Notes under the pieces: model-generated | Databases searched by the model: none | What the model was told of the DNA's origin: nothing | What the model saw: the letters and a program-made list of their open reading frames with translations, nothing else | In this document: piece by piece, positions 19,380 through 20,816 of the stretch | Layout: each line of letters starts with the position of its first letter | Position numbering within the stretch: position 1 is the first letter of the stretch | Translations under genes and position numbers: made by a program | DNA from: Escherichia coli | GTDB lineage: Bacteria > Pseudomonadota > Gammaproteobacteria > Enterobacterales > Enterobacteriaceae | NCBI RefSeq assembly: GCF_001677475.2 | Contig: NZ_CP015229.1 | DNA: 64,000 nucleotides | Reading direction: 5' to 3' (one strand)

Positions 19380-20816
19380 TCAGCGTTTGTAGCCCCCACC
19401 CAGCGCGCCGGTGAGTTGAATGGAGGCATCCAGCCACTGCCCCTGCAAGAGCAGACCGTTCGCCCGTTCACGCAGCGCCGGGATTCTGGCTTCGCTGACG
19501 CGGGAACCAGCAATGATGCCCGCGTTAAAGCGTGCCTGCGCAAGACCTACCACACGCAAGGCATCGCGCTCAATTTGCGCCTGATGCTGGTTTTTCTCCG
19601 CAAGTGTCTGAACCTGACTGGCTGCCCGCGCCACGTCATTCACCGCTTCAACCACCGCTTTGTTGTAGCTGGCGATAGACAAGTTGCTTTCGGCTTTTGC
19701 GATATCGAGGTTGGCGTTAAGACGACCACTATCGAAAATGGGTAGCGTCAGGCCTGCCGTAACGCCCATTTGCTGCGCGGAATGACGGAACAGATCGCTT
19801 AAGTGCAACGCATCCTGTTGCAGGAAGGCCATCAGGTTGATGTCAGGATAAAATGCCGCTTTTGCCGCATCAATAGTGCTTAACGATGACTCAACGTACC
19901 AGTGCGCCGCCTGCAAATCTGCCCGACGGGCCAGTAAGGAGTACCCCAGTTCATCAGGAAGCTGACTTGCCACTTTCGGCAACACGACCGGATTAAGCTT
20001 CAATACCTTTGTCTGGTGATTTGTAAGTGCGCTTAACCGTGCCTCAATAATTTTCATTTTCCCCGCGACATCGTTGAGCTGCTGCAGGGTTTTGCTGGCA
20101 TTAATATCGGTTTCCACACCTTCAACTGAAGAAGTAATCCCGTTCTGATATAGCTGGCGATCGGTGGCGATAATGGTGTTCTGCTCTTTTTCGATTTGCT
20201 GTAAGACAGTGTTTAACGCCGCCTGGGTTTGCCACTCCCAGTACAGGCGGGCTACGCTGCCAGCCAGCAATTGGCGGGTTTGCTCGCGTTCCGCCGCTCG
20301 TGCTTTAACCGTACCCAGGCGAGCAGTTACCTCCGCCCGATTCTTTCCCCAGATATCAAGATGCCAGCCCGCCGTTAAGCCAAAAGTACCGTTGGTGTAC
20401 CACGGACCGGTCGTACCTGCGGCAGGATCGTTCAGAGCAAACGGCCCCATTAACCCTTCTGCAGACATTTTTTGCCGCTCCATATCCGCAGAAAAGTCGA
20501 TCTGCGGACCATCCTGAGTGGCAACTGCCTTCGCCTGGGCTTCAGCCAGCTGAATGCGCTGTTCAGCCACCTGCATATCCGGTGCGTTCTGTAGTGCGTT
20601 ATTAATTAAGGAAGTGAGTTGATTATCGTGATACTCCAGCCACCATTGGCTGTCTGGCCAACCATTTTTCAGCGCCGTGGGTAATGCGGTGTCAACTTGT
20701 GCAGCGGGCGTTTGCTGGCTTAACGCCTGGCGGGTTTCATGCATAGGCGCACACCCGGCCAGCATCAGTAACAGCGGAAAACAGGCGATGGCTGGATAAA
20801 AGGAATCACGATTCAT
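19380..20816 (-). CDS. mdtQ: Efflux outer-membrane lipoprotein MdtQ (OprM/NodT family), apparently intact
   Basis: Continuous 478-aa reading frame with lipobox LLMLAGC; ORF-track 508 aa trimmed to MNRDSFYP. Confidence 0.75.
   Translation of the reverse strand: MNRDSFYPAIACFPLLLMLAGCAPMHETRQALSQQTPAAQVDTALPTALKNGWPDSQWWLEYHDNQLTSLINNALQNAPDMQVAEQRIQLAEAQAKAVATQDGPQIDFSADMERQKMSAEGLMGPFALNDPAAGTTGPWYTNGTFGLTAGWHLDIWGKNRAEVTARLGTVKARAAEREQTRQLLAGSVARLYWEWQTQAALNTVLQQIEKEQNTIIATDRQLYQNGITSSVEGVETDINASKTLQQLNDVAGKMKIIEARLSALTNHQTKVLKLNPVVLPKVASQLPDELGYSLLARRADLQAAHWYVESSLSTIDAAKAAFYPDINLMAFLQQDALHLSDLFRHSAQQMGVTAGLTLPIFDSGRLNANLDIAKAESNLSIASYNKAVVEAVNDVARAASQVQTLAEKNQHQAQIERDALRVVGLAQARFNAGIIAGSRVSEARIPALRERANGLLLQGQWLDASIQLTGALGGGYKR

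Follow-up and report, generated by a model that had tools for sequence, protein, structure and literature searches.

Whether a gene recorded as a pseudogene in the reference strain is also broken in other strains of the species is the question raised by mdtQ, a gene for a predicted outer-membrane factor that is disrupted in Escherichia coli K-12. We analyzed a 64,000-nucleotide stretch of E. coli DNA (the window), in which the gene was proposed in an initial annotation to form a single intact lipoprotein frame, and asked whether this frame is genuine and which of the two states is the usual one. We conclude, with little room for doubt, that the window gene is an ordinary intact allele of mdtQ, which encodes one of four outer-membrane factors in E. 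coli that resemble TolC, and that K-12 carries a derived null allele. Both the pseudogene status in K-12 and the intact conservation elsewhere are already documented and constitute an ordinary difference between strains. Since a 2025 review describes mdtQ as a conserved member of the E. coli core genome, even though it is labelled a pseudogene (PMC11762307), and since existing annotation reports both states, the intact gene is nothing new in itself.

The intact frame and the single-base lesion of K-12

The mdtQ coding sequence (formerly yohG) occupies positions 19380 to 20816 on the minus strand, opening with an ATG at 20816-20814 and closing, after 478 sense codons, with a TGA. This agrees exactly with the initial annotation, which described one continuous 478-codon frame over this interval, leaving its strand unnamed. 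At the sequence level, the assignment to MdtQ is unambiguous: the protein aligns over residues 1-478 of 478 with the NCBIfam MdtQ equivalog NF008524, at 1018.1 bits where 650 are required, and it also exceeds the cutoff of the NodT subfamily model TIGR01845 (271.6 bits, cutoff 210.05, residues 16-475). The Pfam family OEP (outer membrane efflux protein, PF02321) matches at 5.9e-30 in two stretches, corresponding to two tandem OEP repeats, the first of which gives the best stretch (residues 69-266; 20019-20612, minus strand). The identical protein is already public under ANO89916.1 and other accessions, on 34 contigs labelled E. coli, and is named MdtQ there. With 1018 bits to the equivalog and the same DNA in two independent assemblies, the frame is far beyond what chance would produce.

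The largest frame that can be drawn mechanically (19380-20906) reaches an upstream TTG and would encode 508 amino acids. We rejected this start, as NF008524 and the K-12 annotation both begin at the ATG at 20816. Some public annotations do give MdtQ as 508 amino acids from the upstream TTG, and these are probably mis-called starts, because the signal peptide would then be buried 30 residues into the protein. Conversely, since the family model aligns from the ATG and the annotated K-12 start is the same base, the long frame is not an artefact of start choice. The concern that it might be one, or that the K-12 disruption might be present in the window as well, had been raised together with the original claim and was not borne out by either the family model or the alignment described below.

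The disruption of mdtQ in K-12 that was stated at the outset is real. In MG1655 the gene (b2139, mdtQ, formerly yohG/yohH) carries a pseudogene flag and measures 1436 bp, and in a K-12-like RefSeq genome annotated with PGAP it is labelled 'frameshifted'. The K-12 locus is orthologous to that of the window, with the same flanking genes yohF and yohP, and differs from it in having one A fewer in an mdtQ homopolymer and no adjacent IS110 element. A global alignment of the two mdtQ genes, the check proposed at the outset, revealed 42 substitutions and exactly one indel, placing the lesion at positions 20665-20669 of the window: the run CTG-AAAAA-TGG at codons 49-50 (A5 on the minus strand, T5 on the plus strand) reads AAAA in K-12. 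The K-12 frame consequently stops at codon 70, giving a 69-residue product, and beyond the lesion the gene is still open in the +1 frame. The loss of one A from A5 would thus leave K-12 with a lipoprotein stub of 69 residues that lacks the channel. When the K-12 copy is repaired, its protein differs from that of the window at 5 of 478 residues (244, 267, 271, 275, and 278).

Using an 81-nt query for the exact A4 allele of K-12, we searched 5,411 complete RefSeq E. coli genomes and found the allele in 355. The 40 of these that were listed are all K-12 laboratory derivatives, e.g., MG1655, C600, DH5alpha, J53, and ER strains. Judging by those 40, A4 is restricted to the K-12 lineage.

Conservation, losses, and competing explanations

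The intact state is found throughout the other alleles that we compared. Among other genomes taken at even steps down the ranked match list, mdtQ is annotated as intact and 1437 bp long in 12 of 12, as confirmed by translation; the A5 run is present in 15 of 16 other E. coli alleles, with A4 seen in K-12 only; and all 14 natural alleles besides those of K-12 and IAI39 translate as an open frame with A5. The mdtQ genes of strains D2 and TBE6 are each one nucleotide away from the repaired K-12 gene, yet both are intact, which argues that the K-12 deletion is recent. Outside the species, the ortholog of E. albertii aligns with 94% identity and free of gaps, reading ALKNGWPDSQWW across the site of the A run. 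Between the window and the repaired K-12 gene, dN/dS is 0.058 (Nei-Gojobori; 35 synonymous and 7 non-synonymous differences), a value indicating that mdtQ is under strong purifying selection. Taken together, the occurrence of A4 in K-12 derivatives, the intact frame in 14 of 14 other alleles, the frame kept in E. albertii, and the low dN/dS mark the intact frame as both ancestral and usual, so that the suggestion of an ancestral-state allele in the window is upheld. The 2025 review places mdtQ in the core genome of all phylogroups (PMC11762307).

Losses of the gene were also observed in individual strains. In IAI39, mdtQ carries a separate nonsense mutation at codon 30 (CAG to TAG, Q30 stop). 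In STEC379 (NZ_CP091024.1), the N-terminal 60% of the gene is gone beside an inserted IS1A, and what remains is recorded as a partial 'TolC family protein'. With K-12, these amount to three separate and independent E. coli lesions, and truncations of mdtQ have been described in some isolates of Salmonella Typhi and Paratyphi A (PMC9241588). The gene is evidently dispensable enough for such losses to occur.

Signals for expression are sparse around the gene. The divergent intergenic region between mdtQ and yohP spans 20817-21039, and the 230 nt upstream of mdtQ (20817-21046) match K-12 at 229 of 230 positions. No obvious Shine-Dalgarno sequence precedes the ATG in the upstream sequence, and a promoter and terminator scan of 19250-21400 returned nothing above shuffled expectation. 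Adaptor or pump genes are likewise absent within about 6 kb on either side of mdtQ. TolC, however, is also unlinked to its pumps, so that the absence of a linked pump does not exclude a channel function. The gene is monocistronic; it has been described as 'encoded independently' and its promoter as unconfirmed (PMC11762307).

This weak translation-initiation context, the lack of a supported promoter or a linked pump, and the separate inactivations in K-12, IAI39, STEC379, and Salmonella are what would be expected if the gene were cryptic, i.e., silent or decaying behind a frame that has had too little time to gain a lesion. We consider this very unlikely, as dN/dS remains at 0.058 over 42 substitutions, the 3′ end of the window allele has diverged by 9% with zero amino-acid changes, E. 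albertii keeps an intact ortholog at 94% identity, and the gene is open in 14 of 14 natural alleles besides K-12 and IAI39 and belongs to the core of all phylogroups (PMC11762307). An open frame kept with silent-only changes across such divergence makes neutrality improbable, which leaves the ordinary intact allele as our preferred reading.

An error in the data themselves was also considered, namely that an A4 run was read as A5 or that a convenient start codon was chosen. The K-12 difference does sit in a homopolymer, and homopolymers are a classic site of sequencing error; yet the window agrees with two independent assemblies at this site, A5 is shared by 15 of 16 other alleles, the exact protein occurs on 34 contigs, and the ATG falls on position 1 of the family model and on the start annotated in K-12, which makes an artefact improbable in the extreme. 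Equally negligible is a secondary reversion to A5 from a K-12-like A4 frameshift, for although an indel in a homopolymer can in principle revert, the allele of the window lies furthest from those of K-12 type (42 nt), A4 occurs in K-12 derivatives only (40 listed of 355 matches), and the outgroup and all other lineages compared have the A5 frame.

Origin of the window and the adjacent IS110-family element

The window is certainly not K-12, and its sequence points to a rare, divergent lineage of E. coli, in keeping with the non-K-12 background suggested initially. In addition to the 42 substitutions in mdtQ, the locus as a whole is about 96-97% identical to K-12, and the nearest complete RefSeq E. 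coli genome reaches 97.1% over positions 1-25000 of the window and 98.4% over positions 40000-64000. Two draft assemblies, GCA_019140015.1 and GCA_033692955.1, are 100% and 99.99% identical to the window within 13380-26816, over 7.8 and 13.4 kb, respectively. An exact 46-mer of the window had no match among the GTDB species-representative genomes, so that the DNA does not derive from one of these. The window mdtQ is itself an outlier among the 17 alleles compared, with 29-49 nucleotide differences from the others. Four of its five amino-acid differences from K-12 fall in a small variable patch between the OEP repeats (codons 267-278; 19983-20018, minus strand). Of the 15 intact alleles in the E. 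coli comparison, only that of the window has L244, V271, and V278, with L244 lying outside the patch.

The divergence is concentrated at one end of the gene. The last 51 codons (428-478; 19383-19535, minus strand) differ by 9.2-9.8% at the nucleotide level from those of six other E. coli alleles, one of them the repaired K-12 copy, i.e., by 14-15 substitutions that are all silent, whereas codons 1-427 diverge by 1.1-2.7%. High divergence continues from the 3′ end of mdtQ through yohF into the 3′ end of yohD, at about 17800-19535, peaking at 11-16% per 250 bp against K-12, compared with about 1-3% in the flanks. Within this tract, yohF, encoding an SDR oxidoreductase (18566-19327, minus strand), is a highly divergent allele with a dS of 0.43 against K-12, and the yohF-yohD segment has a best full-length match of 91.5% among 5,426 complete E. 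coli genomes. The tract resembles a segment imported by recombination from an Escherichia other than E. coli, and one of its edges falls inside mdtQ.

Gene order at the locus, yohF-mdtQ-yohP-dusC, is kept as in K-12, N3, O157:H7, and the draft assemblies, and the sole change is an IS110-family insertion between yohP and dusC. The gene yohP (21040-21123, plus strand) encodes a small membrane protein of 27 amino acids that matches the Pfam family YohP at 1.8e-13. The insertion, present in the window as a single copy, is 1,383 bp long (21352-22734, minus strand) and is not in K-12, against which its breakpoints were placed. Its transposase frame runs from 22649 down to 21625 on the minus strand and contains the domains DEDD_Tnp_IS110 and Transposase_20. 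Relative to the intact 341-residue transposase found in strains N3 and IAI39 (WP_000868863.1), the frame has lost one G at about 21868, and this 1-bp deletion falls inside Transposase_20, splitting the gene into frames of 311 and 95 amino acids. The element therefore carries a transposase pseudogene, and the same defect is found in the draft assembly GCA_033692955.1.

The insertion had been taken to fit a non-K-12 origin. It is indeed one more non-K-12 trait of the locus, but it has no bearing on the integrity of mdtQ. A tie between the two was rejected: IAI39 shares the same IS junction and has a nonsense mdtQ, O157:H7 lacks the IS and has an intact mdtQ, and most strains with an intact mdtQ are, like O157:H7, without the IS.

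Several further features of the region were noted. In IAI39 (NC_011750.1, 901472-907591), the IS110 element adjoins yohP at the same junction and its transposase is intact; on its far side lysO and hcp replace dusC, which implies an IS-associated chromosomal rearrangement. In strain N3 (NZ_CP031609.1), yohP is duplicated, and the IS110 element, together with short flanks, has the opposite orientation to that in the window. The left IS junction (21292-21411; 120 nt comprising a GC-rich flank and the IS end) is present at a coverage of at least 80% in 173 complete genomes, among them IAI39, SMS-3-5, and CE10, and in at least one genome it sits away from the chromosomal position of mdtQ. This suggests repeated insertion of the element at similar targets of a REP-like kind. 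An Rfam scan of 18400-23200 returned only a sub-threshold match outside mdtQ, to the nucleoid-associated, REP-derived RNA naRNA4, at 18462-18526 on the plus strand between yohD and yohF (36.7 bits; gathering score 59.5). Further along the window, the interval between yeiS and preT (27419-27561) measures about 143 bp compared with about 20 bp in K-12, an alignment gap that is probably a difference in an intergenic repeat element.

Predicted channel architecture and related outer-membrane factors

The N-terminus of MdtQ (MNRDSFYPAIACFPLLLMLAGCAP) has a short charged start followed by a hydrophobic core and a canonical lipobox. The signal peptide and lipobox occupy codons 1-22 (20751-20816, minus strand), and the region can be written MNRDSFYPAIACFPLLLM-LAGC-A, with the lipobox ending at Cys22 and Ala at the +2 position. 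The proper lipobox attributed to the gene at the outset is therefore present, since L19-A20-G21-C22 fits the regular expression [LVI][ASTVI][GAS]C. The family is lipidated, and MdtQ has been named among the acylated outer-membrane factors (PMC13082787). Almost end to end, the protein aligns with outer-membrane factors of solved structure, i.e., VceC, OprM, CmeC, SilC, CusC, OprN, MtrE, and OprJ, at 4.7e-39 to 6.1e-18.

We infer lipidation, trimerisation, and channel function from homology only. If MdtQ behaves as its family does, the precursor would be exported by Sec, would receive its lipid at Cys22 through Lgt, LspA, and Lnt, and would be sorted to the outer membrane by Lol because of the Ala at +2. 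The mature protein would then assemble as a trimer, forming a beta-barrel and a long alpha-helical periplasmic tunnel, and this tunnel would dock an adaptor in the periplasm and a pump in the inner membrane, giving a tripartite efflux system.

Second-hand reports describe a slight rise in the susceptibility of mdtQ null mutants to puromycin, acriflavine, and tetraphenylarsonium (PMC11762307, PMC9241588). If that work used K-12, mdtQ was a frameshifted pseudogene beforehand. K-12 is, on our reading, a natural null for the outer-membrane factor MdtQ. Screens in this strain, e.g., with the Keio collection of K-12 single-gene knockouts, consequently cannot reveal the function of MdtQ or its partner pump, and wild isolates with alleles like that of the window would be the right background for experiments on either. 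Given that mdtQ is under strong purifying selection across Escherichia and has nevertheless been inactivated several times independently, MdtQ might be a functional exit duct for a further pump, with its loss favored in some niches through surface exposure or cost, for example as a receptor for phages or colicins, by analogy with TolC. We regard this proposal as unlikely; if it holds, the null allele of K-12 would be the reason why a role was never found.

The closest relatives of the window gene are the natural MdtQ alleles of E. coli itself. The O157:H7 protein (WP_001078124.1, UniProt Q8X659) is encoded by the same gene at the same locus and has the same 478 amino acids in length. Across five sampled natural alleles, amino-acid identity to the window protein is 98.3-99.4%, with the O157:H7 allele at 98.3%, and a published structure model exists for a near-identical ortholog. 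Among characterized systems, MdtQ resembles the NodT/OprM-type lipoproteins VceC of Vibrio cholerae (PDB 1yc9; MdtQ residues 51-477, 4.7e-39) and OprM of Pseudomonas aeruginosa (PDB 1wp1; residues 55-477, 7.6e-24), although both are distant from it in sequence. The genes of VceC and OprM sit in operons with their pumps, VceAB and MexAB. In contrast, mdtQ stands alone, both in the neighborhood analyzed here and in the published description (PMC11762307). The other three outer-membrane factors of E. coli, i.e., MdtP, CusC, and TolC, belong to the same superfamily and share its predicted architecture. The window protein is nevertheless separated from the first two by their family models, scoring 349 bits against the MdtP equivalog NF007390 (under the cutoff of 597) and 94 bits against the CusC-type model (far under the cutoff of 598). 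Both cusC and mdtP are located in pump operons (PMC11762307), and both of their products are lipoproteins like MdtQ, whereas TolC is without lipidation (PMC13082787).
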